This document shows positions 8,156 through 54,885 of a DNA stretch of 64,000 bases, in pieces (the first letter of the stretch is position 1; every line of letters begins with the position of its first letter). The translations under genes and the position numbers were made by a program. The DNA is taken from assembly GCA_964373885.1 (NCBI GenBank), contig CAYJWM010000002.1, forward strand, positions 2,189 to 66,188, given 5' to 3'. The notes beneath the pieces are model-generated. The model had not been told where the DNA came from. It saw nothing but the letters and a program-made list of their open reading frames with translations, and did not search any database. This DNA is from an uncultured bacterium. GTDB lineage: Bacteria; Omnitrophota; Omnitrophia; Omnitrophales; Danuiimicrobiaceae.

Positions 8156-9994
8156 ATGTGCGGCATTGTCGGCTATATCGGCGCGAAAGATACAAATCCT
8201 ATTCTGCTTAAAGCGCTTTCCCGGCTGGAATACCGCGGTTATGACTCCGCCGGCTTGGCGACGGTTTCAGATGCCGGCCTTACCCTCCTGAAGGCGCCCG
8301 GAAAAATTCACGTATTACAAAAACTAGCTGCCCGCAATCCTCTGCGCGGACATTTGGGAATAGGCCATACGCGCTGGGCCACTCACGGCGAGCCATCCGA
8401 ACGCAACGCCCATCCCCATGCGGATTGCACGGGAACCATCGCCGTGGTCCACAACGGCATTATTGAAAATCACGCTATTTTACGAAAGCGTTTGATCGAT
8501 TCGGGGCATCGTTTCAGCTCCGAAACGGACACCGAGGTGCTTTCGCATTTAATCGAGGAGTATTATTTAAAAGACAGTCGCGATTTGGAGCACTCCGTCC
8601 GCCTTGCATTGCAAGATCTGGAGGGAAGTTATGCGTTTTGTGTCGTGAGCGCCAAAGATCCGGATCGATTTATCGCGGCCCGGAACGCGAGCCCTTTGGT
8701 CGTGGGCCTGGGGGAGGGCGAGAATTTTATTGCTTCCGATGCGCCGGCCATTTTGGATTACACCCGCCGCATTATTTTTCTGGAAGATTATCAAACCGCC
8801 GTGGTTTCCCGAAACGGGGTGAAAGTGACCTCCCAAGAGGGAGAACCGGTAAAACCCACGGTCATCCAAGTCGATTGGAGCGAAAAAGACGCCACCAAGG
8901 ACGGGTTTGATCACTTCATGCTGAAGGAAATTGAAGAGCAGCCCAAAGTGATCGAACGGATGATCAAAACGCGCATTCAAGATTCATCGGATTTGGCGCT
9001 TTTCGACATTCTGAATTTCCCGGAAGACCGGTTGAAGCAAGTGAAACGCATCATGATTCAGGCCTGCGGCACGTCCTGGCATGCGGCGCTTACGGGAAAA
9101 TTTTTCTTTGAGGCCATTTCCGGCCTTCCGTGCGAAGTGGATGTTTCCTCCGAATTCAGATACCGGTCTTTTGTTCCGCCCGGGGACACTCTTCTTATTT
9201 CTATCACGCAGTCAGGGGAGACCATTGACACACTGATGGGTCTTCGCAGGGGAAAAGGGAACGGTTTAAAAACCATATCCATTTGCAATGTGCTTGGGAG
9301 CACCGTTGCCCGCGAATCGGACGCCGTTATTTATACCCAAGCGGGCCCCGAAATCGGCGTGGCTTCCACAAAGACATACACGGCCCAGCTTGGCATTTTG
9401 TTTTTGCTGAGTATTTACTGGGCGCGGCTTCGCAACCACTCGAACGGATTCGATTTGGACCGGCTGATCGCCGAGTTTAAAACCATTCCTGAGAAAATAT
9501 ATTCCATCATCCGGCAAAAGGAAAAAATCCGCTCCATTGCCGAATATTACTCCGATGCCCGCGACTTTTTGTTTTTAGCGCGCGGGATTCAATACCCGAA
9601 TGCGCACGAAGGCGCGCTTAAAATCAAAGAAATCGCCTATATTCACGCGACGGGCCATCCGGCCGGCGAGATGAAACACGGGCCGATCGCGCTGATCGAT
9701 GAACGCATGCCGGTCGTGGTGATCGCGACGGATTCAAGCATTTACGAAAAAATGGTTTCCAATATCCGTGAAGTGAAGGCGAGGGCCGGGAAGGTGATCG
9801 CGATTGCGACCGAAGGCAACGAATCCATCCGGGCGTTCGTCGACCATGTGATTTATGTTCCCAAAACGCATGAGCTTTTGTCTCCGTTGCTCGCCGCCCT
9901 CCCGCTTCAATATTTGGCCTATTTTGTGGCCGTCAGGCGTGGAACGGATATCGATCAACCCAGGAATTTGGCCAAATCCGTCACAGTGGAGTGA
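8156..9994 (+). CDS. glmS: Glutamine--fructose-6-phosphate aminotransferase (isomerising)
   Basis: 612 aa. N-terminal MCGIVGY is the Ntn Cys nucleophile. Two SIS domains follow, and the C-terminal end (KSVTVE) is canonical. Confidence 0.95.
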   Translation: MCGIVGYIGAKDTNPILLKALSRLEYRGYDSAGLATVSDAGLTLLKAPGKIHVLQKLAARNPLRGHLGIGHTRWATHGEPSERNAHPHADCTGTIAVVHNGIIENHAILRKRLIDSGHRFSSETDTEVLSHLIEEYYLKDSRDLEHSVRLALQDLEGSYAFCVVSAKDPDRFIAARNASPLVVGLGEGENFIASDAPAILDYTRRIIFLEDYQTAVVSRNGVKVTSQEGEPVKPTVIQVDWSEKDATKDGFDHFMLKEIEEQPKVIERMIKTRIQDSSDLALFDILNFPEDRLKQVKRIMIQACGTSWHAALTGKFFFEAISGLPCEVDVSSEFRYRSFVPPGDTLLISITQSGETIDTLMGLRRGKGNGLKTISICNVLGSTVARESDAVIYTQAGPEIGVASTKTYTAQLGILFLLSIYWARLRNHSNGFDLDRLIAEFKTIPEKIYSIIRQKEKIRSIAEYYSDARDFLFLARGIQYPNAHEGALKIKEIAYIHATGHPAGEMKHGPIALIDERMPVVVIATDSSIYEKMVSNIREVKARAGKVIAIATEGNESIRAFVDHVIYVPKTHELLSPLLAALPLQYLAYFVAVRRGTDIDQPRNLAKSVTVE

Positions 9995-10001
9995 AGAATT
10001 C

Positions 10002-11324
10002 ATGACCACTACTGCCTTGAGTGAACAAGAACTTTATCAAAAGATAAAAACCAAACACATTCGTTCCGGCATCATCGGACTCGGTTATGTGGGGCTTCCG
10101 CTTGCCGTGGAATTCGCAAGTGCCGGCGTGGAAGTGGTGGGAATCGATATAGACGGCAAAAAAACGGCACAGGCAAACAAGGGTATTTCCTATATTCAGG
10201 ACATTCCGGGCGAAACCGTTCAGGAGCTTGTACATCAGAAAAAACTTTCCGCCACCACGGACTTCAAAATCATCCGCGACTTGGACACGGTCAACATTTG
10301 CGTGCCCACACCGCTTCGGAAATCAAAGGACCCGGATATTTCTTATATTGTTTCCGCCGCCCAGGAAATTGCCAAATATCTTCACGAAGGAATGCTGATC
10401 ATACTGGAAAGCACGACTTATCCGGGCACGACGGAAGAAGTGATTCGCCCGCTGCTGGAAGAAACGGGTTTGAAAGTGGGGAAAGATTTCTTTCTCGCGT
10501 TTTCTCCGGAACGCGTGGATCCGGGCAATCCGCAGTTTAAAACCAGAAACATTCCGAAAGTGGTCGGCGGCGTGACGGCCGAATGCACGCGGCTGGCCAA
10601 GGCGTTTTATGAACTTGCCATTGATACCGTGCACACGGTTTCATCGCCCCGCGCCGCCGAAATGGTGAAGCTCCTTGAAAATACGTTTCGAAGCGTCAAT
10701 ATCGGCCTCGTCAATGAACTCTGCCAAATGAGTGAAAAGCTCGGGCTTGATATTTGGGAAGTGATCGATGCGGCCGCTACAAAACCGTTTGGTTTCATGC
10801 CGTTTTATCCGGGCCCCGGTCTCGGCGGGCATTGTATCCCGATTGATCCCCATTACTTGGCCTGGAAAGCGCGGGTAAACGGGTTTAACCCCAGATTTAT
10901 CGAGCTCGCCAGCGATGTGAACGCTCAAATGCCGGAATTTGTGGTCCGCAAAGCCCAAGCGGTTTTAAACGAGCGGGGAAAACCGCTGAAAGGTTCCCGC
11001 ATTTTAATTTTGGGTGTCACCTACAAAAAAAATGTGGCTGATATTCGCGAATCGCCGGCCCTTGAAATCATCGAATTACTCGAAAAAGGAGGCGCGGTCG
11101 TTTCCTATTGCGACCCATTCGTTCCGGAGCTTGCGCTCGGGCACAAAAGCCGTTGTTCGGTTTCACTTGATGCACCGGATCAAAAGCCCGATCTCGCTAT
11201 TTTAGTGACGGATCACGACCGGTTTGACCGCCAAGAAATCGTCAGCCGTTTTCCTCTGATTTTGGACACACGCCACGCGCTTCCCGCCATCCGTTCAAAT
11301 TCGGGAACGGTTGTGAGGATTTAG
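10002..11324 (+). CDS. UDP-N-acetyl-hexosamine 6-dehydrogenase (nucleotide-sugar dehydrogenase; WbpO/TviB/WecC-like)
   Basis: Start moved to ATG 10002, just after the glmS stop. NAD motif GIIGLGYVGLP and catalytic-Cys region GGHCIPIDP. It is paired with a WbpP/TviC-like epimerase. Confidence 0.8.
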   Translation: MTTTALSEQELYQKIKTKHIRSGIIGLGYVGLPLAVEFASAGVEVVGIDIDGKKTAQANKGISYIQDIPGETVQELVHQKKLSATTDFKIIRDLDTVNICVPTPLRKSKDPDISYIVSAAQEIAKYLHEGMLIILESTTYPGTTEEVIRPLLEETGLKVGKDFFLAFSPERVDPGNPQFKTRNIPKVVGGVTAECTRLAKAFYELAIDTVHTVSSPRAAEMVKLLENTFRSVNIGLVNELCQMSEKLGLDIWEVIDAAATKPFGFMPFYPGPGLGGHCIPIDPHYLAWKARVNGFNPRFIELASDVNAQMPEFVVRKAQAVLNERGKPLKGSRILILGVTYKKNVADIRESPALEIIELLEKGGAVVSYCDPFVPELALGHKSRCSVSLDAPDQKPDLAILVTDHDRFDRQEIVSRFPLILDTRHALPAIRSNSGTVVRI

Positions 11325-11335
11325 GGAGGGAAACG

Positions 11336-12103
11336 ATGCGTCAGGAAACCAAAGAGCATTCTTTAGATTATCCTACGGAATCACTCGTAACTGGTTTGCC
11401 ATCCGAAACAAATGGTTTAAGCGGATGGTATTTTCAACGACCGCCCCGGCTCGTGGTGTTTTTTTTCTCCGTTGCCTTGCTTCTCGGTTTATTGCACATC
11501 ATGGCTTTCGTGTGGGGAGAACAAGCCTGGCAATTCGAAAGAGCATTTTATCTGGGGAGAGAAAACAACGTGCCGACATGGTTTTCAAGCATTTTACTGT
11601 TTTTCGGAGGGCTTTTAGCTTTGGAGTTGGCATGGAATGTTGTGAACGCGAAGCGTTTTACACTATTTTTATTCGGCGGCATCTTGTTCTTCCTGTCGTG
11701 CGATGAAGTGGCATCCCTTCACGAAAGTGTTAATTCGGCATTAATACACCGTATCGTGCTGCCCGAAATGTTCATTGAGAAGTTTCCGGTGACACACTGG
11801 CCTATTTTTCTTGCCCCCCCTGTTTTAGCGGCAGGTTTTTTGGCACTGAAGCAGCTGCGTGCGGTTTTTCAGAGTTGCCCGGATGCGTTTTTGTTTCTTG
11901 TGTTTGGATGCGGCATGTTTATTCTCGGCGCGGTTGTCTTAGAGCTATTTGAGAACGTATTGATTGCAGATTCAGTTGTTTGGTGGCGTCCTTGGAACAC
12001 GTTTATTGAGGAATTGTTGGAGATGGCCGGAAGCATTTTCATTATTTGGGGTTTTTGTATTGCCAGGAGAAAATTCATGATTCCAAGAGCGGAGCTCACA
12101 TAG
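11336..12103 (+). CDS. Polytopic membrane protein, unknown function
   Basis: 255 aa with about 6 hydrophobic helices. I recognise no motif. Its stop directly abuts the next start. Confidence 0.45.
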   Translation: MRQETKEHSLDYPTESLVTGLPSETNGLSGWYFQRPPRLVVFFFSVALLLGLLHIMAFVWGEQAWQFERAFYLGRENNVPTWFSSILLFFGGLLALELAWNVVNAKRFTLFLFGGILFFLSCDEVASLHESVNSALIHRIVLPEMFIEKFPVTHWPIFLAPPVLAAGFLALKQLRAVFQSCPDAFLFLVFGCGMFILGAVVLELFENVLIADSVVWWRPWNTFIEELLEMAGSIFIIWGFCIARRKFMIPRAELT

Positions 12104-13963
12104 ATGCCCGGTTTAGTGGGTTGTGTCAGCCGTCAATCGTTGGACCGCAGTTTGCTCTCGGCCATGGCAAAACCCATGCTTCATCGGATCGATTATCAGG
12201 TCCATGAACATGCGGACGAGCATTTCATTTCCGCCGCAATTAATTTAGCTTCCGACCCGCAGAGCGCATTCATTCAGTCACCTGACGGCCGATACGCGGT
12301 CGTTTTCTTTGGCTCCCTTTATGAAACATGGGCCGGTTCGAAAGGGGAAATTCTCAGAAATCTTTTGAACCGCTGGAGAGGGGACGGTTGGCACGGTCTG
12401 GCGGATTTGAACGGCGAGTATTTGGTCATGGTCTGGGATTATTTAGAAAAGTCTTTGACCATTGTCAACGATCGTCTTGGGCTGCAGAAACTTTGCTATT
12501 GGACGGACGGTTCTTCATTTGCTTGGGCTTCTGAAGTGAAAGCTTTGGCGGTGATACCGCAAGTCAGCCGCACGGTTGACGAACATGCATTGTCGGAGCT
12601 TTTGACCTTCGGCCATTTGCAAGATGACCGCACGCTTTTCCGTGGCGTGAAGTTGATGCCGCCGGGAAGTTATCTTGAGTGGAAAAATGGAAATATTGTC
12701 ATTCATTCTTATTGGCAGTATGAACATCGGGCGGATCCCGCGCTTGAAAATGATGAAGCAGTTGTCCGGGAGTATGCCTCTCATGTGTTTCGTGCTGTTT
12801 CAAGGAGAATGGAAAAAAGCGGCCGCGCCGGACTTTTTCTAAGCGGCGGGCTTGATTCACGTACGCTTGCGGGCGTGATGCGGAAGGCAAGCCCGCACGG
12901 CGACATTTTGACATGGACAACAGGGCATGGCCACGATCATGACAGCCGTTATGCAAAGCAAATTGCAAATGCCATCGGTGCCAAACATACCTCTGTTGTG
13001 ATTCCGGAATCATTTCTTGAAGACCATGCTGCTGAATATGCCTGGATTTTGGACGGCGCCGTGACGGCGGACGGCTGCCACCGCGCTCTCTTGTGCAGTC
13101 CAGCGGAAGGAAAAGCGGATTTATTTTTTAACGGTTTTTTGGGCGATGTGCTGAGCGGCGGGAAACCTTTTGACAAGGTGTTGCATCTTACAAAGCTTGA
13201 TGATTTGGCAAAAACCGGGTTCGGTCTTTATGCCATGGGTTTTGACGATCTCGCTTTGTCCGAAATTTTTCGTCCGGCGATTTACGGACGCATTCGCGGC
13301 CTTGCTCGGGAAGCATTCCGGAAAACAATATGCAATGCCCGGGTGGAACACCCCGCGGACCGAGTGGTGCAAGCGGAATTAATTCAACGCCAGCGCCTTG
13401 GAAACCCGCGCATTCAAGTAGATTTTTTAAATGCCGGTTTACGGACGGCAACCCCTTTTACTGACAAGGATTTTATCGATTTCACGTTGCGGCTTCCCAT
13501 GAGTCAGCGGATTGGAAGAAAGGCATATACAAGCATGATCGTCCATGAGTTTCCGCATCTGGCCCGAATCTCAAGATCAGGGGATGGGCTTCCCCTTATT
13601 CATTCGCGTTTTCACGCTTCGCTTCATTGGCGCTGGGTCTTGTTCAAACGCCATGTGCTTCCCGAGCTGACGGGCGGGTGCTGGCAAGGACACAATTACG
13701 CGGCGTTTGTCCATTGCGGCGAGTGGTTCCGGAATTTTAATTGCAAATTTATCGAGCGTGAGCTTTTGGACAGCCCGTTTTTGGAAGAATATTTTCAAAT
13801 GGACGAACTGAACCGGTTGGTCCGCACGTTTTTGGATGACGAAACGCAGGAGCATTTGTATTCGGGAGTGGCATCGCTTTTGAGTTTTGTGCTGTTTCGG
13901 AAAAAATTAGACGAAGTCCCGGTTTATTCGGAAGGGAGAAAAATATTATGTGCGGCGTCGTAG
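12104..13963 (+). CDS. Asparagine-synthase-like ATP-dependent amide ligase lacking the N-terminal Cys nucleophile
   Basis: PP-loop LFLSGGLDSR. An Ntn-like N-domain is present (NDRLGLQKLCYW, FAWASEVKAL). The N-terminus is MPGLVGC rather than MCG. Confidence 0.75.
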   Translation: MPGLVGCVSRQSLDRSLLSAMAKPMLHRIDYQVHEHADEHFISAAINLASDPQSAFIQSPDGRYAVVFFGSLYETWAGSKGEILRNLLNRWRGDGWHGLADLNGEYLVMVWDYLEKSLTIVNDRLGLQKLCYWTDGSSFAWASEVKALAVIPQVSRTVDEHALSELLTFGHLQDDRTLFRGVKLMPPGSYLEWKNGNIVIHSYWQYEHRADPALENDEAVVREYASHVFRAVSRRMEKSGRAGLFLSGGLDSRTLAGVMRKASPHGDILTWTTGHGHDHDSRYAKQIANAIGAKHTSVVIPESFLEDHAAEYAWILDGAVTADGCHRALLCSPAEGKADLFFNGFLGDVLSGGKPFDKVLHLTKLDDLAKTGFGLYAMGFDDLALSEIFRPAIYGRIRGLAREAFRKTICNARVEHPADRVVQAELIQRQRLGNPRIQVDFLNAGLRTATPFTDKDFIDFTLRLPMSQRIGRKAYTSMIVHEFPHLARISRSGDGLPLIHSRFHASLHWRWVLFKRHVLPELTGGCWQGHNYAAFVHCGEWFRNFNCKFIERELLDSPFLEEYFQMDELNRLVRTFLDDETQEHLYSGVASLLSFVLFRKKLDEVPVYSEGRKILCAAS

Positions 13964-15894
13964 GTTTTTGGAATCGTGACGGCCAGATTGCAAGCGAAGT
14001 CCTGCTCGAGCGCATGCTTGAGCGCATCCGTCACCGGGGCCCGGATGACAAGGGAACGTGGGCCGAGGACGGAATCGGTCTGGGCCATGCGCGGCTGAGC
14101 ATTCTGGATTTGAGCGAGCGCGGTCATCAGCCATTTCTGACTCAAGACGGACTCGGTGCCATTTCCTACAACGGTGAAGTTTATAACTTCCGGGAACTCA
14201 GGAAAGATTTGGAAAAGGAAGGCGTGAAATTTAAAAGTACTTCGGATACCGAAGTCGTTCTCTATGCGCTTCACCATTGGGGTCCTGAGAAAGCGATTCC
14301 CCGCTTTGATGGAATGTTTGCCTTGGCTTATTTTGATTTACGAAGCCGAACCTTGTGGTTGAGCCGTGATCGCACAGGGATTAAGCCGCTTTATACGGCG
14401 CGCGCCGGCAATATGATCGCATTTGCATCCGAAATGAAAGCGTTCTTTGGTCATCCGGGGATTCCATGCCGGCCGGACCTTCATGCGCTTACCACGATGG
14501 TGATTCACGAGCGGTTAGATGGAAAATGGACCCCTTTTGAAAATGTGGAATGTGTCATCCCCGGCACGGTGGTGAGAATCACAAAGGATTGTGAGGAAGA
14601 AATCGTTTATTTTGATCTCCTGCGAGATCTCGATATCGACCGGATCATAAAGGGACGATCGATGCCATTTGAAGTTTTACTCGCGCAGTTCGAAGCGCTT
14701 TTCACGAAGAGCATAAACATGCATCTCATCAGTGACGCGCCGTTGGCCGCCATGTTGAGCGGCGGATTGGATTCATCTCTGATGCTGGCCATTGCAAGGC
14801 AGTATAAAAAAGACATTGTGGCTTATGTGGCGGACGTAAAGGGAGTCGGAATTCCAGAAACGCCAAAGGCGAGGAAGGTGGCTGACCATCTTGGGATTGA
14901 ACTTCGGCCTGTCAAAGTGGATGTCGAAGAGTACCTCCGCTTGTGGCCAATGGTCGTCTATCAAAACGACCAGCCCAATCACTTTTCCCAAAATGTTCCG
15001 TTTACCGCGGTTTCAAATGCAGCGCGGCGTGACGGATTTAAAGTTCTTCTGACGGGCGAGGGCTCGGATGAGCTTTTTGGTGGTTACGACTGGCTCGTTG
15101 AGTCATACAAGATGTGGCGTTGGCGGAGAATTCATTCACTTCTCATCCCCAATATCGCGCCCCTTCGTGCAATAGGCCGCTGGATGAAGAGACTTGCACC
15201 GCTTGACTTGAATGCTTTGGCCGAGAGGCCTTTTTCTCATCTTTCAAAATGGGAAGAAATAGATCAGGAAGAGCGCGCTTTATGTGCGGTTGATGGAGCT
15301 CAGCGCCATGTGCGTGAGAAAGCAATCTTTCAAAAGCTTGAGAGCATTAAGCCCGTTGAAGAGCGCGCTTTCCTGGCACATTCCTTCGAATCGTTTCACA
15401 TTCATTTGCGGACGCTCCTGGCCTGCAATGACAAAATGGGGATGGTTCAGTCCATTGAAGCCCGCGTCCCATTTCTAGAGACGGAGTTGATCGATTTTGC
15501 CCTCCACCTTCCTTGCAGCGCCAAGTTTTTTAAGGGCATGACCAAGCGCATTGTTAAGAAAGCGGCTGAAAAGATGCTGCCTCGCGATATCGTTCATGCG
15601 CCTAAGATCGGTTTTGCCGTGAATCCTCACGTGTGGAAAGGTGCAGAAGAACTTCTTAAGGGAGGAATGGTTCCGGAACTTTTCAAATGGGGTTCTTCAG
15701 AAATTCGGGGAATTTCAAGCATGCTCTTTAAGAATCCCTGGGTTGCTTTTCATATCTTGAGCGTTGAGCTTTGGGCACGGATTTATTTCCGCGGTGAATC
15801 GCCATCTGAATTAGGGGAAGCGCTTCTGAGAATGAATAAAAGGAATGGCAAGATACGGGGCATACCCCAAAGCGCGTTGCAAGGAGAATCGTAA
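13948..15894 (+). CDS. Asparagine synthase (glutamine-hydrolysing) family amidotransferase
   Basis: MCGVVGFW supplies Cys2. Other motifs: RGPDD, RDRTGIKPLY, FASEMKAF and PP-loop MLSGGLDSS. Good RBS (GGGAGAA). Confidence 0.9.
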   Translation: MCGVVGFWNRDGQIASEVLLERMLERIRHRGPDDKGTWAEDGIGLGHARLSILDLSERGHQPFLTQDGLGAISYNGEVYNFRELRKDLEKEGVKFKSTSDTEVVLYALHHWGPEKAIPRFDGMFALAYFDLRSRTLWLSRDRTGIKPLYTARAGNMIAFASEMKAFFGHPGIPCRPDLHALTTMVIHERLDGKWTPFENVECVIPGTVVRITKDCEEEIVYFDLLRDLDIDRIIKGRSMPFEVLLAQFEALFTKSINMHLISDAPLAAMLSGGLDSSLMLAIARQYKKDIVAYVADVKGVGIPETPKARKVADHLGIELRPVKVDVEEYLRLWPMVVYQNDQPNHFSQNVPFTAVSNAARRDGFKVLLTGEGSDELFGGYDWLVESYKMWRWRRIHSLLIPNIAPLRAIGRWMKRLAPLDLNALAERPFSHLSKWEEIDQEERALCAVDGAQRHVREKAIFQKLESIKPVEERAFLAHSFESFHIHLRTLLACNDKMGMVQSIEARVPFLETELIDFALHLPCSAKFFKGMTKRIVKKAAEKMLPRDIVHAPKIGFAVNPHVWKGAEELLKGGMVPELFKWGSSEIRGISSMLFKNPWVAFHILSVELWARIYFRGESPSELGEALLRMNKRNGKIRGIPQSALQGES

Positions 15895-15895
15895 A

Positions 15896-17842
15896 ATGGT
15901 TTTTGTTGTCACCAATCGGATTTTAAGTTATTTGCCGAATCCCGGGTCATCCGCCAGGGATGCTCATGGTGTGCGCATTTCATCGGCAGCTGTACGGCTC
16001 GGGCTTACGGTTTTTTGCAAGGAACCATTTGTGTTTGCTTGTTCTGAGATTGCTTCGTCCCTTCCTTCGGAAGGGACATTTAAAGGAATCCTATTTAGTC
16101 CTGACGCCGCCGGCGTCAGGGCTTCGGTCGCTTCGCGCCCTCGCAATGACGTTGTTGAAGCAATCCGGAACTCTCATTCCAATTCATTGACCAAAACAAT
16201 GGTTCTGGATGTTTTCCCTGGGACTTCCGCATCAGGCCGTCATTTGAATTTGAACATGAAACAATCCTCTTGGACCGAGTGGCATAAGCAAGCTGAAAAA
16301 GAAGCTCAATTTTACAATCTCCTTGAACTTACGGCCGAGAGCTTTCGACTTGAAAGTGATTCTTTGGGAATCAAGCCTCTTTATCGATCAGAGTTGTCTG
16401 GTGGGACAATATTTGCTTCCCGGCTGCGCGATTTAATTAGTATTTTCCCTGAACTTTCCAAACCCATTGATTCCGTCGCTTTATACGGACTTCTGATGCT
16501 GAGCAGTCCCCCGTCTGATCGAACGTTGCATGAGAAAATTCGTCGGACTTCGACCGGCGCTTGTTATGGATGGGATTCGCAGAACGGGCTCCGCATGACT
16601 CGTGAGCGCCGTTTGAAAGCGCCGAGTGTGGACGCCGATTTAGGCATGGAGCGTGCGCAGGATAGAATTCAAGCGGCATTGAGCTCAAGTTTGAACGCCA
16701 GGACCCAGTCGCTTAAACAACCCGTGATCCTCGCCCTGTCAGGGGGTTACGACTCCCGTCTGATCGCCGCATTTTCGAAAGAACTCGGCATTCCAATCAA
16801 TGCCTATACCTATGGTGAAGCACATCACCGCGAGGTTTATATTGCCAAACTTGTCGCTCAAACACTCAAACTTAATCACCGCGTGATTCCTTACGCTCAA
16901 AATAATTTGTTGTCCCGCTTACCTGTTTATTTGGAGACGGTTGAAGGACAGGCCGATTTAGGAACGGCACAAATTGCGAATATGCTTGATCTTGAAACTG
17001 AAGAAGGGTCCCCGCTTCTGATCGGCTTTTTGGGTGAAACGGTGGCGGGTGAGCATTTGGCTTGGTTAAAGGATTCGGACTTCGATGATTTTAACGGAAT
17101 TTCAGAAGGGATTGTGCGCGGATATGCGCATCGGCAGCAGCTCGACGGTCAACCGTTTACCGGAATGGAGCTTTCACGGGAGGCCTACAAAGAGGAAGTT
17201 TCGAAAGAACTGAGAAAGGACTGCCATCCTTACCAATCCTTGATGATTTGGGATTTGGAAAATCGCCAGCGACGCTATATTGGTGCTCATTGTCAAATGC
17301 TCGGTTCGCACTTCGATGTGATTGCTCCGAATTATGATTTGGAAGTGATTGACGCCTGGTTTTCTCTCCCGCGCATTCCGTTGATGAAAAGACGCTTCTT
17401 TCATCAATTGCTCGAACATTGCTTTCCGGACCTCGCCAAAATTCCGCATGCGGCCGAGCCCCATCCGATTATTCCTAATCTTAAGTATCAGCTCAAACTG
17501 TACGGTCGTTCTCAATTCAGCCGGTTGTTTGCAGCTTTCGGGCAGAATGGAAAACATCCGGATATTGACCGCCTCTGGTGTACGTTAACCGTCAAGCAGG
17601 AGGAACATATGGTTTCCCATGTGGTTCGATGTGGAGATAAATTGGAACGGATGTTTGGGATTCGCCCTGTGAGCGGGTTTGAAGGAATGGTTAGGGGAAA
17701 GCCGCAGGCAGTCAGAAATCTCTTCATGGTTGCCAAATATGCCGAATGGCTTCGCCGGGGGAAAACAGCCGTGCCAAGTTTGCCGCCCGCGACCAATTTG
17801 GAACTTGCCGGTTCGGGCATTTATTCGGGAGGGCATGCATGA
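15896..17842 (+). CDS. Asparagine-synthase-like protein with truncated/absent glutaminase domain (start uncertain)
   Basis: PP-loop LALSGGYDSR. Only the tail of the Ntn domain is recognisable (DSLGIKPLYRS, FASRLRDL). ATG 15896 has a strong AAGGAG RBS, but codons about 50-85 are a REP-like palindrome cluster. Alternative starts are 16199 and 16256. Confidence 0.6.
   Translation: MVFVVTNRILSYLPNPGSSARDAHGVRISSAAVRLGLTVFCKEPFVFACSEIASSLPSEGTFKGILFSPDAAGVRASVASRPRNDVVEAIRNSHSNSLTKTMVLDVFPGTSASGRHLNLNMKQSSWTEWHKQAEKEAQFYNLLELTAESFRLESDSLGIKPLYRSELSGGTIFASRLRDLISIFPELSKPIDSVALYGLLMLSSPPSDRTLHEKIRRTSTGACYGWDSQNGLRMTRERRLKAPSVDADLGMERAQDRIQAALSSSLNARTQSLKQPVILALSGGYDSRLIAAFSKELGIPINAYTYGEAHHREVYIAKLVAQTLKLNHRVIPYAQNNLLSRLPVYLETVEGQADLGTAQIANMLDLETEEGSPLLIGFLGETVAGEHLAWLKDSDFDDFNGISEGIVRGYAHRQQLDGQPFTGMELSREAYKEEVSKELRKDCHPYQSLMIWDLENRQRRYIGAHCQMLGSHFDVIAPNYDLEVIDAWFSLPRIPLMKRRFFHQLLEHCFPDLAKIPHAAEPHPIIPNLKYQLKLYGRSQFSRLFAAFGQNGKHPDIDRLWCTLTVKQEEHMVSHVVRCGDKLERMFGIRPVSGFEGMVRGKPQAVRNLFMVAKYAEWLRRGKTAVPSLPPATNLELAGSGIYSGGHA
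16051..16151. repeat. REP-like palindrome cluster inside the 5' part of the third AsnB-like ORF
   Basis: Two hairpins: gtcccttcc-ttc-ggaagggac (16057-16077) and cctgacgccg-c-cggcgtcagg (16100-16120). They are followed by gcttcggtcgcttcgcgccctcgcaatgacg. Confidence 0.65.
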
Positions 17843-18819
17843 ACGTACTGTTAGTGACTCATGAGTTTGAAAATCAGCATAAGTTTCTTCCCAGCGTTAT
17901 TCGAGAACTTGATGCGCTCGGCGAGCAGTTTGGACGGCGTTACCGGGCGCGTCTTGTCCATGATTACACACCGAATCTCAAACATAAATTATGGGCCCTG
18001 GGCCGGCCGACGGTTGTTATTTCCATGGTCCAATTGAGGCACTTTTTTCCCGCTTGGGCCACGGTTTGGTCCCAACAGAATATTGACAAAGTCGCCGAGT
18101 ACAAAGCGCTTGAGCAGGCCGGGATACCGGTCCCGAAATGGACGGCTGTTTACGAAGGCAATACTCCCGATCTCTCCGGATTTGACGATTTTGTGGTGGT
18201 CAAACCCGCTAGAGGGGGATGGGGCGCTTTGGTCCGGATCATGAAGCGTGACAAAGTCAGCTGGAGGCCGCTTAAGGTTGAAAAACTGGGTGTGGTAAGT
18301 GAAGCCATGGTTGTTCAAACCTATATACACACGGGCCCCAGACCTATGAGTTATCGTGTGGGATCCGTTTTTGGGGAGCCCATTTATGCCTGGACGCATA
18401 CGGCTTCGGACAGCAAAACCCCGTTTCCGGAGACAGACGTCAGGGACGAACGCTTTTTCGCAGGAAAGTCAATTGTAGCGACTGGAAAGGGTACGGTCTA
18501 TAAACTGGGCGTGCCGGATGATGTTCTTGATTTTGCAAGGCGGGCCCATCGTGCTTTTCCCACCATTCCGCTGCTGGGAATGGACATTGTCAGATGTCAA
18601 GCAACGCAAAAACTCTATGTTCTTGAAGTCAATGCAACAGGCGATACATTTCATCTTACCTCAAACGCTGGCCAGCGCATACAGCGCGAGATGGGATTTG
18701 ATGCCTTGAAACAATTCGGGGGCGCTCGCGCGGTGGCGCGCGGAATGTACAACCGCCTTAATGAATGGGCAGGGGTGTGTACTCCGGATCTTGAAGAAAA
18801 GGAAATGATTGCCGTATGA
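17839..18819 (+). CDS. ATP-grasp family ligase, paralogue 1
   Basis: Start at ATG 17839 (ATGA overlap). RimK-like motif order: DKVAEYKALEQAGIPVP, FVVVKPARGGWGALV, VVQTYI, YRVGSVFGEPIYA, LLGMDIV...KLYVLEVNATGD. Confidence 0.7.
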   Translation: MNVLLVTHEFENQHKFLPSVIRELDALGEQFGRRYRARLVHDYTPNLKHKLWALGRPTVVISMVQLRHFFPAWATVWSQQNIDKVAEYKALEQAGIPVPKWTAVYEGNTPDLSGFDDFVVVKPARGGWGALVRIMKRDKVSWRPLKVEKLGVVSEAMVVQTYIHTGPRPMSYRVGSVFGEPIYAWTHTASDSKTPFPETDVRDERFFAGKSIVATGKGTVYKLGVPDDVLDFARRAHRAFPTIPLLGMDIVRCQATQKLYVLEVNATGDTFHLTSNAGQRIQREMGFDALKQFGGARAVARGMYNRLNEWAGVCTPDLEEKEMIAV

Positions 18820-19829
18820 ACGTGCTGCTTGTGACTCATGACTATGAACAGCAAAATGAACTTCTTCCGGATGTGATTCGGGAACTGAACACGCTCGGCG
18901 ACAGATTCGGGCGGCGCTATCGCGCGCGTCTTGTCCATGATTATGCACCGAATCTCAAACATCAATTATGGACTTTGGGCCGACCGACCGTGGTGGTTTC
19001 AATGCTGCCGTTGCGCCGATTTTTTCCTTCTTGGGCCACGATTTTGGCCAATGAGGATATTTATAAAGTTCAGGAGTACACGGCGCTTGAGCGCGCAGGA
19101 ATTCCCATCCCAAAGTGGACGGTTGTGCGGCAGGGAGAGGAGCCGGACCTTAGCGGATTTAATGAGTTCGTGGTGGTGAAACCGGCGCAGGGCGGCTGCG
19201 GGGCTCTTGTGAGAATCATGCGCCGCAATCGGGTTGAATGGCGCCCGCTTGAAGTTAAAAAATTTAACTGGAGCCATATGGATTTGATCGCCCAGGAATA
19301 CGTTCATACGGGGCCGTGGCCCGTGAGCTATCGCGTGGGGACTGTTTTCGGAGAGCCGATTTATGCTTGGCGCATTACGGCGGACCGTTCGCGCCGGCCG
19401 TTTGAAGAAGGGAAGATGGATTCGCATTTTTTTGACGGGCGCACGATAGTGTCTTCTGGAAAAGGATGTACTTTTGATTGGGAAGTGCCCCAGGATGTGT
19501 TTGAGTTGGCGCGCGCCCTTCATGAACGGGCGTTTCCCAATACGCCGCTGCTTGGTTCGGACATCATACGAGACGTCCACTCAGGGAAACTTTATGTTCT
19601 TGAAGTAAACGCCAACGGAGATAATTTTCACCTTACCTCCCGAGTCGCCCAGCGAATTAAACGCGAGTTCAATCTCGATTCAAAAGCGCAATTCGGGGGC
19701 GCTCGCGCGGTGGCGCGCGGAATTTACAGGCGGCTGAATCAATTTGTCTCAAACGGGCGGGTAGATGAATTGAACCACTTACAATCTGACGCTGAAAGGA
19801 TGCCATCTACGATGACTACTTCAGTGTGA
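18816..19829 (+). CDS. ATP-grasp family ligase, paralogue 2
   Basis: ATGA overlap with paralogue 1. Same motif set (FVVVKPAQGGCGALV, AQEYV, LLGSDII...KLYVLEVNANGD). A 35-nt stretch at 19689-19723 is identical to 18712-18746. Confidence 0.7.
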   Translation: MNVLLVTHDYEQQNELLPDVIRELNTLGDRFGRRYRARLVHDYAPNLKHQLWTLGRPTVVVSMLPLRRFFPSWATILANEDIYKVQEYTALERAGIPIPKWTVVRQGEEPDLSGFNEFVVVKPAQGGCGALVRIMRRNRVEWRPLEVKKFNWSHMDLIAQEYVHTGPWPVSYRVGTVFGEPIYAWRITADRSRRPFEEGKMDSHFFDGRTIVSSGKGCTFDWEVPQDVFELARALHERAFPNTPLLGSDIIRDVHSGKLYVLEVNANGDNFHLTSRVAQRIKREFNLDSKAQFGGARAVARGIYRRLNQFVSNGRVDELNHLQSDAERMPSTMTTSV

Positions 19830-19859: not shown

Positions 19860-20948
19860 ATGAACGTTTTATTGGTACGCACACACGATCCGGACCAGGA
19901 TTCCATATGGCCGGAAGTTGTGAGGGAACTTCGCGGGTTTGGAGTCCGCGCTCGGGCAGTCTGGGATTCGATTCCACACCTAAAACATCGCTTGTGGGCA
20001 CTCGGACGGCCGACCTATGTCATTGCCTTGAAGCCGATAAGGCGATTTGCGCCTTGGTGGGCCGAAAGATTGCAACAGGTGAGATGTGACAAAATTCAGG
20101 AATATGAATTGCTCGATCGCTCAGGCATTCCGGTTCCGAGATGGATCGCCATTCATCAAGGGGATGTGCCCAACCTTTCCGGGTTCGGTGATTTTGTGGT
20201 TACGAAGCCCGCGGCAGGATGCCGTGGGGCATTTGTGCGCGTGATGCGCCGCGGCCGGGTGCGGTGGCGATATTTCAACCTAGAACATAGAAGGGGAGAA
20301 AGTACGGCGATCGTCGTTCAGGAATATATTTATACGGGGTCAAGACCTGTGAGTTATCGCGTTGCCACATGTTTTGGAGAACCTTATTACGCCTGGAGGA
20401 CAACCGCAGCCGCCTCCCGATTACGATTTGAGGAAGGCCTTAAAGGAGCACATTTTTTTGCCGGAAAGAGCATCGTTTCCACCGGGGAAGGTTGCACCAT
20501 GGATCCGGAAGTTCCGTCAGACGTCATTCAATTCGGGACGCGGGTCCATGAAGCTTTTCCGGATATCCCGCTTCTTTCCATCGATATTATTCGTGACGGC
20601 CGTTCCGGCGCACTTTACGTGCTCGAGTTGAACACTGCCGGATTGATTATGGTCGCGACACCACAAAGTATGAGCCGGATCAAACACGATTTTGGCTTTG
20701 ATCCCTGCGTGCAGTTCGGAGGAGCAAAAGCGGTTGCACGCGGAATTTATAACCGGGTCAAGGGACGGCCCTTCGGGCCGCCACCTGCCCGCGGCACGGC
20801 TGCGCCGCCGCGGGCAGGTACTGCTCCGGCTCCCCCGGGCAAGCCCGGGGCATCCTCCGCTGTCAATCGAATGAGCTCAAAGGACTCTGAGCGCGGCGGA
20901 TCCGTTCGGGATTTAAATACAGTATTAGAGGAAGCTTTGGTTCCATGA
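19860..20948 (+). CDS. ATP-grasp family ligase, paralogue 3 (more divergent, with repeat-derived C-terminal tail)
   Basis: MNVLLVRTHD start. Motifs: FVVTKPAAGCRGAFV, VVQEYI, LLSIDII...ALYVLELNTAG. The last roughly 60 aa (PPARGTAAPPRAGTAPAPPGKPG...) are encoded by palindromic repeats. Confidence 0.65.
   Translation: MNVLLVRTHDPDQDSIWPEVVRELRGFGVRARAVWDSIPHLKHRLWALGRPTYVIALKPIRRFAPWWAERLQQVRCDKIQEYELLDRSGIPVPRWIAIHQGDVPNLSGFGDFVVTKPAAGCRGAFVRVMRRGRVRWRYFNLEHRRGESTAIVVQEYIYTGSRPVSYRVATCFGEPYYAWRTTAAASRLRFEEGLKGAHFFAGKSIVSTGEGCTMDPEVPSDVIQFGTRVHEAFPDIPLLSIDIIRDGRSGALYVLELNTAGLIMVATPQSMSRIKHDFGFDPCVQFGGAKAVARGIYNRVKGRPFGPPPARGTAAPPRAGTAPAPPGKPGASSAVNRMSSKDSERGGSVRDLNTVLEEALVP
20783..20850. repeat. 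Two adjacent GC-rich palindromes (acctgcccgcgg family) inside the 3' end of ATP-grasp paralogue 3
   Basis: acctgcccgcgg-N13-ccgcgggcaggt (20783-20819, 12-bp stem) and ccccgggc-aa-gcccgggg (20833-20850). The loop of the first is the reverse complement of the loop at 31895-31909. Confidence 0.7.
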
Positions 20949-21676
20949 AAAGTTTAGTGGAAAATTTTGCCAAAACATGGCGGTCTTTTCGAGATGACGG
21001 TGCCGTTGAGACCCTAGGCCGGCTTTTGCACCGGCTTAGGATTGTCTCTGTCGTGCACTCTTTGGATTTTTTTATAAAGGAGCTCAACGGGAGTGCGGCT
21101 GCCCGAGCAACCGAAAAGGGTAACCCCGTTAGTCCGTGGACTTTCCGGGAAGTGCCTTCTCATGAATTTGAATGTTTGAGATACGCCGAGGGTTTACAAC
21201 CCATTGAGTGGATGCGCGAACAATTTGCTCACGGTTCGCGGCTTTTTGCGGCTTTGCAACAAAATTTAGTCATTGCACTTAATTGGTTTAATCCGCATAT
21301 CGCCGAGCTAGGACATATTAAGCGGATTATTTCTCTGACGAACGGTGTTGTGTATACGCAAGGCGCTTTGACAGCGCCTGCGTATCGGAACCGGGGCGTC
21401 GGAACTTTGCTCAAACAATATTTACTGAGCGTGGTTCAAGGTGAAGGTTATCGCCTCGTTCTATTGGCTGTTTTTTTGGATAACGACCGAGCCATCAAAT
21501 GGCATGAGCGGAATGGTTTTAGAAGATGGGGCAGAATCACTTATGTGCGCTGGCGCAGCCGCGACTTTTGGCGGGTTTACCTTACGAAAGCAGGGAGGCT
21601 TCACCCGAATCTTCTCGATGGCCATCACACGAACGTTCGACACATGTCTCAGATTCTTCAAAAGGTCGCCTCATGA
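20945..21676 (+). CDS. GNAT family N-acetyltransferase
   Basis: 243 aa. Acetyl-CoA motif A is RNRGVGTLLKQYL, followed by NDRAIKWHERNGF. ATGA overlaps at both ends. Confidence 0.7.
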   Translation: MKSLVENFAKTWRSFRDDGAVETLGRLLHRLRIVSVVHSLDFFIKELNGSAAARATEKGNPVSPWTFREVPSHEFECLRYAEGLQPIEWMREQFAHGSRLFAALQQNLVIALNWFNPHIAELGHIKRIISLTNGVVYTQGALTAPAYRNRGVGTLLKQYLLSVVQGEGYRLVLLAVFLDNDRAIKWHERNGFRRWGRITYVRWRSRDFWRVYLTKAGRLHPNLLDGHHTNVRHMSQILQKVAS

Positions 21677-23172
21677 GGCCACAGTCATTTGCATTAACTT
21701 ATCCGCAATTGATGAACCAAGCATTATCAGGAGGTGTTTCTGAAGAAGACCTGATCCGACTGCGAAGGGCTTATGAGCTGGCAGAGGAACTCTTTGACGG
21801 CTTTTACCGGGGGCAGGGAATGCCGTTTATTTGTCATTTGGTGCGGACGGCAAGCATTCTTCTTGCCGAAAAACAGCCAATCGACGTTGTATCTGCTGGG
21901 TTATTACACTCAGCGTATTTGATCGGTCAATTTGAGGACGGAGTTTGCGGGCGGCGGACTGTTCGGCACCGGGAACAGCTTGTAGAACGGGTAGGAATTA
22001 AAGTTGAAGGGCTCATTGCGGATTATCAAGCGCTTCCTTGGAAGTCGCGATTCACATTTGAAGAACTTTTTCGAAAACAAGATACGTACGAAGTTCCCAA
22101 ACGACATTTGCTTGCCATGCGTCTGGCCAATGAATTGGAGGATTACCTGGACCTTTCGATGGCGTATCGGGGTCTTTTTCCTTTTCGCGAGCGCATAAAA
22201 GATTGCGGTCCATTGGTGATTGAGCTTGCCCGGCGGCTCGGCTTATCACTGATTGCGGATGGTTTGGAGGAAGCTTATGCGGCGCATATGAATTTCGAAT
22301 TGCCTCAAACCGTAACGAAAGGTCGTATGAATTGGTATGAGCAACCCGAACGGATTTGGCAAAAGATGAATTATTCCGAAAAAGCCAGGGTCTTATTTCG
22401 AAAAAGTGTTCGGAAGTGGCTTGCGGGCAGTTCTAACGAAAGACACGGGATCGAGAAAATAGATTTTGATTCGAATCAAATGTTTTGTGAATTGGATCAT
22501 CTGGCGAAAGACAAGAAACTTATTCGCATCGTGAATACTTGCATTGAAGCACATCGGGCTCAGGAATCAGAAATGCTCAAAGACCGTTTTAAACCAGACG
22601 CGCAAGCATTGGAAAAGGTATCGCTCAAGGCCTTAGAGGAAATCCTTGGGTCTGGGAAAAACATCCATGGCATTCTACAAAATCCGGAGATTTCAAATTG
22701 CATCGTCGTTAATGGTTCTGCGGTTCGAGATTCATTTTTTAGCAAGGAGCTTGAACAGTTAAGGGGAAAGGTTGATGAAATAGTGTCCGATCGGCTTAAG
22801 AAATTATTTTGCGAGAGCCGGAGGATTCTCATTTCAAATAGCGGACACTTTTTATATCCGCCGGGTGGTTTCATGAGTTGGCATACCAATTCACAAGCGC
22901 CTGGCTGGCGGTTTTATATCAATTACTGTGAAGAACCCGGCAAATCTTTTTTCCGGTATCGAAATCCGGAAACAGGTGAAATGGTCACCTCTTATGACAA
23001 AGAATGGAATTTTCGTTTGTTCAAAATCGACCCGGTAAAACCGTTCTGGCATGCGGTTTATTCAGAAACGAATCGTTACAGCTTCGGGTTCAGAATGACG
23101 CTCAAAACAAGACCTCGTTTCTTTACGCGAGCGGTCAATCGAATCAAAGGAATCACAACCCAAATCCTTTAG
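21673..23172 (+). CDS. Two-domain protein: HD-like N-terminal domain + cupin/double-stranded beta-helix (2OG-oxygenase-like) C-terminal domain
   Basis: Start at ATG 21673 (ATGA overlap). The N-domain FICHLVRTASILL...VVSAGLLHSAY resembles (p)ppGpp-hydrolase-type HD domains, but with HS instead of HD. The C-domain GGFMSWHTNS...FWHAVYSETNRYSFGF fits a DSBH pattern. Confidence 0.4.
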   Translation: MRPQSFALTYPQLMNQALSGGVSEEDLIRLRRAYELAEELFDGFYRGQGMPFICHLVRTASILLAEKQPIDVVSAGLLHSAYLIGQFEDGVCGRRTVRHREQLVERVGIKVEGLIADYQALPWKSRFTFEELFRKQDTYEVPKRHLLAMRLANELEDYLDLSMAYRGLFPFRERIKDCGPLVIELARRLGLSLIADGLEEAYAAHMNFELPQTVTKGRMNWYEQPERIWQKMNYSEKARVLFRKSVRKWLAGSSNERHGIEKIDFDSNQMFCELDHLAKDKKLIRIVNTCIEAHRAQESEMLKDRFKPDAQALEKVSLKALEEILGSGKNIHGILQNPEISNCIVVNGSAVRDSFFSKELEQLRGKVDEIVSDRLKKLFCESRRILISNSGHFLYPPGGFMSWHTNSQAPGWRFYINYCEEPGKSFFRYRNPETGEMVTSYDKEWNFRLFKIDPVKPFWHAVYSETNRYSFGFRMTLKTRPRFFTRAVNRIKGITTQIL

Positions 23173-30030: not shown

Positions 30031-30940
30031 GCTTAGCGTTGTCATTTGCACCTATAACCGGGCCGAAAGTTTGTGGGACACGCTTCAGGCGCTTAAGAAC
30101 CAGCGCATCCCCGATGGTTTGGATTGTGAAATTATCGTGGTGGACAACAACAGTAGGGATCGGACAAAAGAGATCGCTTGTCAAGAAAGCCGCGAAAGTC
30201 CGTGGCCAATTCGTTATGTTTTTGAACCCGATCAGGGGGTCAGCCATGCGCGCAATCGCGGAATTTTAGAAGCCAAGGGAGACTTAATCGCGTTTGCGGA
30301 TGACGATATGATTCCCGAGCCGAATTGGATGGATTCGCTTTTAAGGGGTTTTGAGGAGTTTCGCGCCGACTGTGTCGGCGGTCCGGTTCTTCCAATTTGG
30401 GCTCAAGAACCTCCGGCGTGGTTGAGCGATCCAAAACTGAGATTCGGAATGCTCGCGCTCTTGGATCGGGGGGACAAACCGATTGTTGCTGCTAAGACAG
30501 ATTCCAACATCGTATTTGGTGGAAACTCCGCGTATCGGAAATCGCTTTTTCAAGAAGTAGGTTTGTTCCGCACGGATTTGGGCCGCAGGGGCAAAACGCT
30601 CTCGTGCGGTGAGGACAGCGAAATGATCAGGCGCATCATTCATTTGAAAAAGCACGTGGTTTACCTTCCGGGTGCCATCGTGAGACATAAAGTGATGCCC
30701 GAGAGAATGAGTTTAAATTACCTCCGGAAGTGGCATTTCGACGGTGCGCGGTCCACCGCCCGGCTTTCCAAGTTCCGCCGCGGAATTGTTTTGGAACTGA
30801 TTTTGGAATGCGTCAAAAGCGGGTCTGCCGCTTTGATGCGTTACGCATGTTTTGACCGGTTGCGGGCGGTGGGAGCGGAGATTAATTTTTGGTGGAAGCT
30901 GGGAATGCTTGTGGAAATGGTGAATCATGCCAAAAGTTAG
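30023..30940 (+). CDS. Glycosyltransferase family 2 (short type), copy a
   Basis: Start at ATG 30023 (MPKLSVVICTYNR). Motifs IIVVDNNSRDRT and FADDDMIP. Paralogue of 35623-36600. Confidence 0.85.
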   Translation: MPKLSVVICTYNRAESLWDTLQALKNQRIPDGLDCEIIVVDNNSRDRTKEIACQESRESPWPIRYVFEPDQGVSHARNRGILEAKGDLIAFADDDMIPEPNWMDSLLRGFEEFRADCVGGPVLPIWAQEPPAWLSDPKLRFGMLALLDRGDKPIVAAKTDSNIVFGGNSAYRKSLFQEVGLFRTDLGRRGKTLSCGEDSEMIRRIIHLKKHVVYLPGAIVRHKVMPERMSLNYLRKWHFDGARSTARLSKFRRGIVLELILECVKSGSAALMRYACFDRLRAVGAEINFWWKLGMLVEMVNHAKS

Positions 30941-39800: not shown

Positions 39801-39801
39801 C

Positions 39802-54801: not shown

Positions 54802-54807
54802 CCCTAA

Positions 54808-54885
54808 GTCATCGCCGAAATCTTTAAGCGGGGATCCCCGACAATCCCACAAGGGGACTGCTTCGCTGAAACATTCGGGGATGAC
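54808..54885 (+). repeat. 78-nt REP/MITE-like structured repeat, copy 2 (between GT2 and exosortase; supplies ATG 54881)
   Basis: gtcatcgccgaaat...cattcggggatgac. Matches copy 1 (29907-29984) at 68 of 78 positions by hand alignment. Confidence 0.8.

Follow-up and report, generated by a model that had tools for sequence, protein, structure and literature searches.

The window analysed here, the whole 64,000-nucleotide (nt) stretch of contig CAYJWM010000002.1 under study, is a single long plus-strand exopolysaccharide locus that carries three consecutive AsnB (asparagine synthase)-like genes, hereafter copies 1, 2 and 3 (Table 1). All three are transcribed together, and the exopolysaccharide locus around them, from an Omnitrophota-like bacterium, is of the exosortase (XrtA-like)/PEP-CTERM type. 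Copies 1 and 2 overlap by 16 nt and copy 3 shares an ATGA overlap with the following gene; the genes are translationally coupled. Matches to GATase_6/7 are full-length in copy 2, confined to residues 79–148 in copy 1 and absent from copy 3.

Copy 2 as a canonical glutamine amidotransferase

The residues of the three copies were mapped in E. coli AsnB numbering through an alignment of 129 sequences, in which E. coli AsnB (checked to be identical to 1CT9) was placed with the three copies and the homologues of each, with profile–profile alignments (hhalign) as a check on the mapping. Copy 2 opens with MCGVVG, 9 nt after a GGGAG Shine–Dalgarno motif, and the MCG start recurs in the copy 2 orthologues of two related loci, L002 and L005. 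It retains C1, R49, N74, G75, E76 and D98 together with every aspartate-pocket residue that was checked, and its sequence matches the Protein Data Bank (PDB) entries 7ylz and 1ct9. The features that mark a glutamine-hydrolysing AsnB, namely a Met-Cys start, the glutamine-site residues and the aspartate pocket with Lys449, are all present in copy 2, whereas copies 1 and 3 lack them. Judged by sequence, copy 2 is a complete glutamine-dependent amidotransferase. Since it sits in a polysaccharide operon, asparagine may not be its product; by analogy with WbpS and WbqG, copy 2 would most likely convert a carboxylate, for example that of a sugar uronate, into a primary amide.

Predicted active sites of copies 1 and 3

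Copy 1 opens with ATG CCC GGT (MPGLVGC), and the codon just upstream (12101–12103) is an in-frame TAG. Every in-frame ATG, GTG or TTG followed by a Cys codon was sought over 200 codons of copy 1 and over 260 codons of copy 3 plus its upstream extension; none occurs in either gene, and copy 2 has only the annotated one. An alternative start that restores Met-Cys is ruled out, the one start-plus-Cys in the vicinity (12121) being out of frame. These results agree with an earlier, sequence-only reading of the window, which had reported the MCGVVG start of copy 2, the MPGLVGC start of copy 1 without an alternative Cys start, and an SGG(L/Y)DS PP-loop in all three copies, the last now checked by translation. 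At the remaining glutamine-site positions, the alignment and hhalign place N at R49, F at N74, S at E76 and I at D98 of copy 1, with P at C1 and G75 conserved. The C1 and R49/N74/G75/E76/D98 positions are not alignable in copy 3.

The ATP site is present in all three copies, in the form of the S-G-G-x-D-S PP-loop, Gly347, an acidic residue at position 351 and the P-F/N-x-D motif. Residue 351 is D, D and E in copies 1, 2 and 3, respectively, and Asp in seven of the eight copy 3 homologues. The 346–352 motif reads SGEGSDE in E. coli AsnB, NGFLGDV in copy 1, TGEGSDE in copy 2 and IGFLGET in copy 3, with E348 replaced by F in both copies 1 and 3 and E352 replaced by V in copy 1 and by T in copy 3; position 348 is Phe or Tyr throughout both Cys-less clades. 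In human ASNS, the equivalent residues Glu364, Asp367 and Glu368 (E348, D351 and E352) bind the α-amino group of the aspartyl moiety, and the E364A/Q variants are inactive, NH4Cl notwithstanding (PMC6748925). Since Glu348 and Glu352 of the aspartate pocket are gone, copies 1 and 3 are not asparagine synthetases. As far as the aligned residues tell, both copies retain the nucleotide/Mg site without the aspartate or glutamine sites.

The N-domains of the copy 1 and copy 3 families are as conserved as their synthetase domains (54.6 versus 54.3% in the copy 1 family; 33.9 versus 36.0% in the copy 3 family). Dead or decaying genes are ruled out by this conservation together with that of the motifs. 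In this regard, the sequence-only reading had named loss of the PP-loop or ATP-site residues as the mark of dead copies; no such loss is seen in copies 1 and 3, in which the PP-loop, Gly347 and the acidic residue 351 are present, and by that test neither is dead.

The Pro2 clade of copy 1

Copy 1 has about 28 orthologues at 40–84% identity, and Pro2 is found in all full-length ones save two of the most distant, P0028 (MST) and P0029 (MPR). The Pro2 column is invariant in alignment A4, which comprises 25 copy 1-family sequences at 42–84% identity and contains 71 invariant columns. Among the best 120 word-index matches to copy 1, 81 start with [MVL]PG and 10 with [ML]CG. An exhaustive HMMER search with copy 1 against 1.84 billion cluster representatives places 351 clusters (50% identity) within E ≤ 1e-30. 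The top 150 representatives nearest copy 1 include 136 full-length proteins, which start with MPG in 82 cases and with MCG in none, and about 120 of which retain the [ST]GGxDS loop. The Cys-to-Pro change, as read from these alignments, is a clade signature. Proteins of this kind are often entered in databases as ‘asparagine synthase (glutamine-hydrolysing)’, as several of the matches are here, a label that is wrong for Cys-less members of the clade.

The AlphaFold model of copy 1 (mean predicted local distance difference test (pLDDT) score 93.8; predicted template-modelling (pTM) score 0.92) adopts a two-domain fold. In Foldseek it matches full-length TsnB9, beta-lactam synthetase, AsnB, human ASNS and CarA; the best match is TsnB9 (7ylz; template-modelling (TM) score 0.72), followed by beta-lactam synthetase and AsnB.

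In a near-identical assembly (L001; GCA_947085775.1, CAMTXR010000027.1), positions 9946–9949 differ from window positions 12600–12603 by one T (TTT versus TTTT), and the resulting frameshift breaks copy 1 into gene calls of 166 and 435 amino acids (aa). The difference is probably a homopolymer sequencing error, because all copy 1 orthologues are intact.

Revised start and rare family of copy 3

Copy 3 starts at ATG 15896, one base past the TAA of copy 2 and behind an AAGGAG Shine–Dalgarno motif, giving a protein of 648 aa with the N-terminus MVFVVTNRIL. The start first listed, at 15845, was rejected because eight copy 3 homologues all begin at the Met18 position of that reading and because of the Shine–Dalgarno motif ahead of ATG 15896. 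The family is rare, with nine homologues besides canonical enzymes among 5.8 billion proteins. Against canonical enzymes, the hhalign alignment of copy 3 begins only at residue 141, and the first 140 residues are not alignable. The AlphaFold model (pLDDT 79.7, pTM 0.83) predicts a complete and confidently folded N-domain, and in Foldseek it matches the same five full-length proteins as the copy 1 model does. The earlier statement that copy 3 keeps only the end of the N-terminal nucleophile (Ntn) domain thus holds at the level of sequence alignment, but not for the predicted fold.

Residues 54–96 of copy 3 (window 16055–16183) form a lineage-specific insertion of ~40 residues that is found in none of the eight homologues and is predicted to be disordered (pLDDT below 50).

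Relations among the copies and synteny

The three copies are pairwise 21–23% identical. Copies 1 and 3 score 72 bits against each other, whereas their scores against copy 2 are only 43 and 32 bits. A recent tandem duplication is ruled out by the low identity and by the closer mutual relation of copies 1 and 3, and the three copies are ancient paralogues of the AsnB superfamily.

The closest loci, found with alignment A4, belong to Omnitrophica/Omnitrophota metagenome-assembled genomes, and their gene orders were obtained by tblastn. L002 encodes a membrane protein, copy 1, three ATP-grasps, copy 2, a GNAT acetyltransferase and a DUF6817 protein, in that order; L005 encodes two membrane proteins, copy 1, one ATP-grasp, GNAT, DUF6817, copy 2 and a methyltransferase. 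The order in L006 is membrane protein, copy 1, GNAT, copy 3 (43% identity), GNAT and DUF6817, and tblastn detected no copy 2 and no ATP-grasp there. L007 has copy 1 only, and the 255-aa membrane protein was not detected in it. Depending on the related Omnitrophota locus, the partner of copy 1 is thus copy 2 or copy 3, or both are missing, and the synteny of these four loci rules out a fixed three-gene cassette. The word ‘triad’ in the sequence-only reading is misleading in so far as it evokes a unit: the copies are old, divergent paralogues, and related loci combine them freely.

Among more distant Cys-less relatives, P0058, P0060 and P0087, as well as the copy 3 relative P0123, adjoin Wzx, Wzy or glycosyltransferase genes, and no canonical AsnB was found within 8 kb of any of the four. 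In a separate case (L011 9001–18308; JAKFIA010000001.1), five Cys-less AsnB-like paralogues of 591, 617, 577, 581 and 584 aa are arrayed in Pedomonas mirosovicensis, all five with an SGG[YF]DS PP-loop and none with a Met-Cys start. This organism, a cultured alphaproteobacterium, is tractable for genetics on Cys-less AsnB-like enzymes.

Gene neighbourhood in the window

Copy 1 is immediately preceded by the gene for a polytopic membrane protein of 255 aa, and the TAG stop of this gene abuts the copy 1 ATG in the same frame. Three of the four related loci (L002, L005 and L006) have the gene in the same place, just ahead of the copy 1 orthologue. The protein has no Pfam or NCBIfam match, and a homologue search gave no named or Pfam-annotated relatives; its invariant acidic/His motifs are ENN[IV]PTWFSS, SxDExASLHE and EExxEM. 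Downstream of copy 3 lie three paralogous ATP-grasp ligase genes, assigned by Pfam ATP-grasp_3, a weak ATPgrasp_ST match and NCBIfam rimK_fam/LysX. The three ATP-grasp paralogues all start with MNVLLV, and related Omnitrophota loci carry 0 to 3 of them. That three ATP-grasps match three AsnB-like genes in number is probably coincidental.

Further afield, the window encodes functions for each stage of exopolysaccharide production: precursor supply (an epimerase, GlmS and a nucleoside diphosphate (NDP)-sugar dehydrogenase); candidate decoration (the AsnB-like genes, the three ATP-grasp ligases, GNAT, the HD/DUF6817 protein and a methyltransferase); assembly (two flippases, many glycosyltransferases and O-antigen-ligase-like proteins); export and its control (an XrtA-type export protein, a chain-length determinant, the pepcterm ATPase and a ParA-like ATPase); and sorting and regulation (exosortase, EpsI, a priming transferase and a histidine kinase). 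At 37605–40944, a GT4 glycosyltransferase–polysaccharide deacetylase fusion is followed by a VimA-like (Acetyltransf_6) protein; pairing of a deacetylase with an aminoacyl-transferase near exosortase and asnB genes is described for the Wbp/Vim pathway (PMC7468200). Three unusual large genes, at 30927–34154, 42470–44827 and 49526–52828, encode a 1075-aa GT2–DegT aminotransferase–GT2 fusion, a 785-aa double GT4 and a 1100-aa open reading frame without a family match, respectively.

Table 1. Positions of the AsnB-like genes, their key motifs and neighbouring genes in the window
Feature	Position	Strand	Remarks
Copy 1	12104–13963	+	619 aa, Cys-less AsnB-like; Pfam Asn_synthase 81 bits
Copy 1 Pro2 codon CCC	12107–12109	+	At the Ntn nucleophile Cys position; hhalign pairs P2 with C2
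Copy 1 PP-loop SGGLDS	12842–12859	+	Verified by translation
Copy 1 NGFLGDV	13130–13150	+	In place of SGEGSDE
Copy 1 Arg491	13574–13576	+	At the Lys449 position
Copy 2	13948–15894	+	648 aa, canonical class II glutamine amidotransferase/AsnB type; Pfam Asn_synthase 212 bits
Copy 2 PP-loop SGGLDS	14758–14775	+	Verified by translation
Copy 2 TGEGSDE	15052–15072	+	Counterpart of SGEGSDE
Copy 2 Lys553	15604–15606	+	Lys449 of E. coli AsnB
Copy 3	15896–17842	+	648 aa (first listed from 15845, 665 aa), Cys-less AsnB-like; Pfam Asn_synthase 34 bits
Copy 3 PP-loop SGGYDS	16739–16756	+	Verified by translation
Copy 3 IGFLGET	17021–17041	+	SGEGSDE position
Copy 3 His518	17447–17449	+	At the Lys449 position
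GlmS	8156–9994	+	Precursor supply
NDP-N-acetyl-sugar 6-dehydrogenase	10002–11324	+	Makes uronic acid; TIGR03026 433 bits
255-aa polytopic membrane protein	11336–12103	+	Directly upstream of copy 1
RimK/LysX-like ATP-grasp ligases (three paralogues)	17839–18819, 18816–19829, 19860–20948	+	Translationally coupled to copy 3
GNAT acetyltransferase	20945–21676	+	Co-occurs with copy 1 in related loci
DUF6817/HD-domain protein	21673–23172	+	Co-occurs with copy 1 in related loci
Exosortase	54794–55711		Sorting

Proposed function of copies 1 and 3

We tentatively propose, at a probability of roughly 0.45, that copies 1 and 3 serve glycan biosynthesis as amide ligases, which would adenylate their acid substrate at the expense of ATP and use an amine other than ammonia. 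In such enzymes, the synthetase half alone would be catalytically live, with ATP and Mg bound through the PP-loop. A carboxylate other than aspartate would presumably be adenylated, and the acyl-adenylate would then be attacked by an amine that does not come from the N-domain of copy 1 or copy 3, yielding an amide. The carboxylate would probably be the uronic acid that the neighbouring dehydrogenase makes, or else an amino-acid side chain assembled by the ATP-grasp/GNAT enzymes. The N-domain, with Pro for the nucleophile, would be held under selection as a structural or ligand-binding module. Glucuronate in the capsule of C. jejuni is amidated by an ATP-grasp domain, Cj1438C (PMC11800379), and therefore the co-encoded ATP-grasps may carry out parallel or sequential ligations. 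In a bolder and rather improbable version of the proposal, the Pro2 (‘MPG’) clade would represent widespread, unrecognised glycan-modifying amide ligases and would supply the catalysts so far lacking for the coupling of amino acids or amines to the uronic acids of bacterial polysaccharides; either the former glutaminase domain would bind a non-ammonia amine (for example an amino acid or amino alcohol) and deliver it via the old ammonia tunnel, or the N-terminal Pro would itself be catalytic, and copy 1 would act at the membrane with the 255-aa protein as its partner.

Several points weigh against the ligase proposal. In place of the catalytic Lys449, copy 1 has Arg (21 members of its family have R there and 6 have K), and the position is occupied by a His that is invariant across the copy 3 family, where the alignment at this position is less certain and the hhalign register past residue 445 looks wrong. 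The substrate assignment is drawn from gene neighbourhood alone, and the distant relative P0044 lies among ribosomal genes, outside a glycan locus. The literature on Cys-less AsnB paralogues in polysaccharide loci, on Omnitrophota exopolysaccharides and on the asnB genes of Zoogloea flocs yielded nothing specific, and no paper was found on any member of either Cys-less clade. Furthermore, free NH3 as the nucleophile would yield the same product class as copy 2.

This last point leads to a reading that we consider somewhat unlikely, in which copies 1 and 3 are ammonia-dependent amidotransferases that use free cytoplasmic NH3/NH4+ to form primary amides on carboxylates other than that of copy 2. 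The ATP motifs of the synthetase site are intact in both copies, AsnB without its Cys nucleophile still has ammonia-dependent synthetase activity, as in the C1A variant used for 1CT9, and those Cys-less relatives that have no canonical partner close by must obtain their nucleophile on their own. However, Glu at position 348, where both clades have Phe or Tyr, is needed for ammonia- as well as glutamine-dependent asparagine synthetase activity, and a large N-domain conserved like the catalytic domain is hard to explain without a role in delivering or binding a nucleophile. The earlier prediction that copies 1 and 3 ligate something other than glutamine-derived ammonia is thus sustained in so far as they are not glutamine-hydrolysing asparagine synthetases, but as a positive statement it is tentative, and free ammonia could also serve. 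A different objection applies to the view that both copies are non-catalytic pseudo-enzymes, serving as scaffolds or regulatory partners, for example in a heterodimer with copy 2 or as a membrane anchor via the 255-aa protein. The AsnB catalytic residues C1, E348, E352 and K449 are lost, AsnB-family enzymes dimerise, and the membrane protein accompanies copy 1 in three of the four related loci, all of which would suit such a role; yet the PP-loop, Gly347 and Asp351 are (nearly) invariant over very deep divergence, so that nucleotide binding is expected in copies 1 and 3, and L006 and L007 have a copy 1 orthologue without copy 2, which together make the pseudo-enzyme view very unlikely.

It is also unlikely that the two copies adenylate their substrates for other chemistry, be it intramolecular lactam formation or cyclisation of the kind known from beta-lactam synthetase, CarA or lasso cyclases, or amidation of a small peptide like N-acetylglutaminylglutamine amide (NAGGN) made by the ATP-grasp and GNAT enzymes. 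Partial hidden Markov model (HMM) matches to lasso cyclase and macrolactam cyclase models point in this direction, as does the Phe/Tyr at position 348, which may be analogous to Tyr348 of beta-lactam synthetase; moreover, an AsnB-like enzyme, an ATP-grasp and a GNAT make up the enzyme set of NAGGN synthesis (AsnO and Ngg). Nevertheless, the HMM scores fall far under the cutoffs (102 against 525 bits for NF033535; 91 and 50 against 570 bits for TIGR03104), the window showed no genes for a precursor peptide, a leader peptidase or beta-lactam formation, and whether a locus has 0 or up to 3 ATP-grasp genes does not depend on copy 1.

The uronic acids of bacterial surface polysaccharides commonly bear amide-linked decorations, whether primary amides, amino acids or amino alcohols; to our knowledge, the enzymes for them have been identified in few cases only, WbpS-type amidotransferases and one ATP-grasp amidoligase among them. 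The present locus points to large uncharacterised Cys-less AsnB clades in glycan loci across phyla. Once the chemistry of these clades is defined, their annotation could be corrected and a new enzyme class for glycan biosynthesis would be established.

Comparison with known systems

Only copy 2 exceeds the cutoff of TIGR01536 (423.4 bits against 267.1 bits), whereas copies 1 (136.5 bits) and 3 (64.2 bits) fall below it. None of the three passes TIGR03108, the XrtA/PEP-CTERM amidotransferase (cutoff 816.9 bits; copy 2 307.7, copy 1 107.4 and copy 3 48.2), TIGR03104, the AsnO-type NAGGN amidotransferase (cutoff 570.1 bits; 90.8, 285.4 and 50.1 for copies 1, 2 and 3), or NF033535, the lasso cyclase (cutoff 525 bits; 101.6, 194.4 and 25, in the same order). 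Copies 1 and 3 thus lie below the curated thresholds of every named family tested.

Set beside E. coli AsnB and human ASNS, copy 2 has the same architecture and the same key elements, namely Cys1, R49/N74/E76/D98, Lys449, the PP-loop and the SGEGSDE pocket. The two-domain fold and the PP-loop are common to copies 1 and 3 as well, but these two differ from both enzymes in lacking the nucleophile, the glutamine-binding residues, Glu348 and Glu352, and are thus neither glutaminases nor specific for aspartate. The WbpS, WbqG and PGN_1234 proteins (TIGR03108) are likewise AsnB-family members encoded in glycan/exosortase loci beside Wbp-type dehydrogenases, and convert uronic acids to uronamides (PMC7468200). 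The genomic setting of a TIGR03108-type enzyme is present in the window, which encodes an exosortase, EpsI, the pepcterm ATPase, a chain-length determinant and the export protein, and the VimA-like acetyltransferase and the deacetylase found at such loci occur here as well (PMC7468200). By comparison, all three copies lie under the curated threshold of this family, and copies 1 and 3 have no Cys.

TsnB9 (7ylz) is the best match of copies 1 and 3 in both sequence and structure (E 4.9e-17 for copy 1), and is also similar in size (~620 aa) and in having a comparable C-terminal extension. This hydroxyamidotransferase is distinct from copies 1 and 3, however, in that it has an MCG start and a working glutaminase-type N-domain and acts in trichostatin biosynthesis. 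Beta-lactam synthetase and CarA, which are among the best structural matches, combine the AsnB fold with a dead N-domain without Cys1 and with ATP/Mg-dependent acyl-adenylation via the PP-loop; a Cys-less N-domain joined to an intact PP-loop domain is also found in copies 1 and 3. Their sequence similarity to the copies is marginal (E 0.003 to 0.06). Catalysis in beta-lactam synthetase relies on a Tyr348–Glu382 dyad and Lys443. In contrast to the exopolysaccharide setting here, these enzymes form intramolecular beta-lactams on small molecules and belong to antibiotic clusters. Lasso-peptide cyclases of the McjC type are Cys-less AsnB homologues as well, which adenylate a carboxylate and form an amide (isopeptide) bond with an amine other than ammonia; their customary neighbours, precursor peptide and B-protein genes, were not found in the window.

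The analogues proposed in the sequence-only reading, beta-lactam and carbapenam synthetases and lasso cyclases, are apt with respect to fold and Cys loss, but the context of copies 1 and 3 is polysaccharide biosynthesis. Cys-less AsnB homologues are an already known kind, represented by beta-lactam synthetase, CarA and the lasso cyclases, and the clades of copies 1 and 3 carry a signature of their own, consisting of Pro2, an aromatic residue at position 348, the GFLGD motif and a glycan context.

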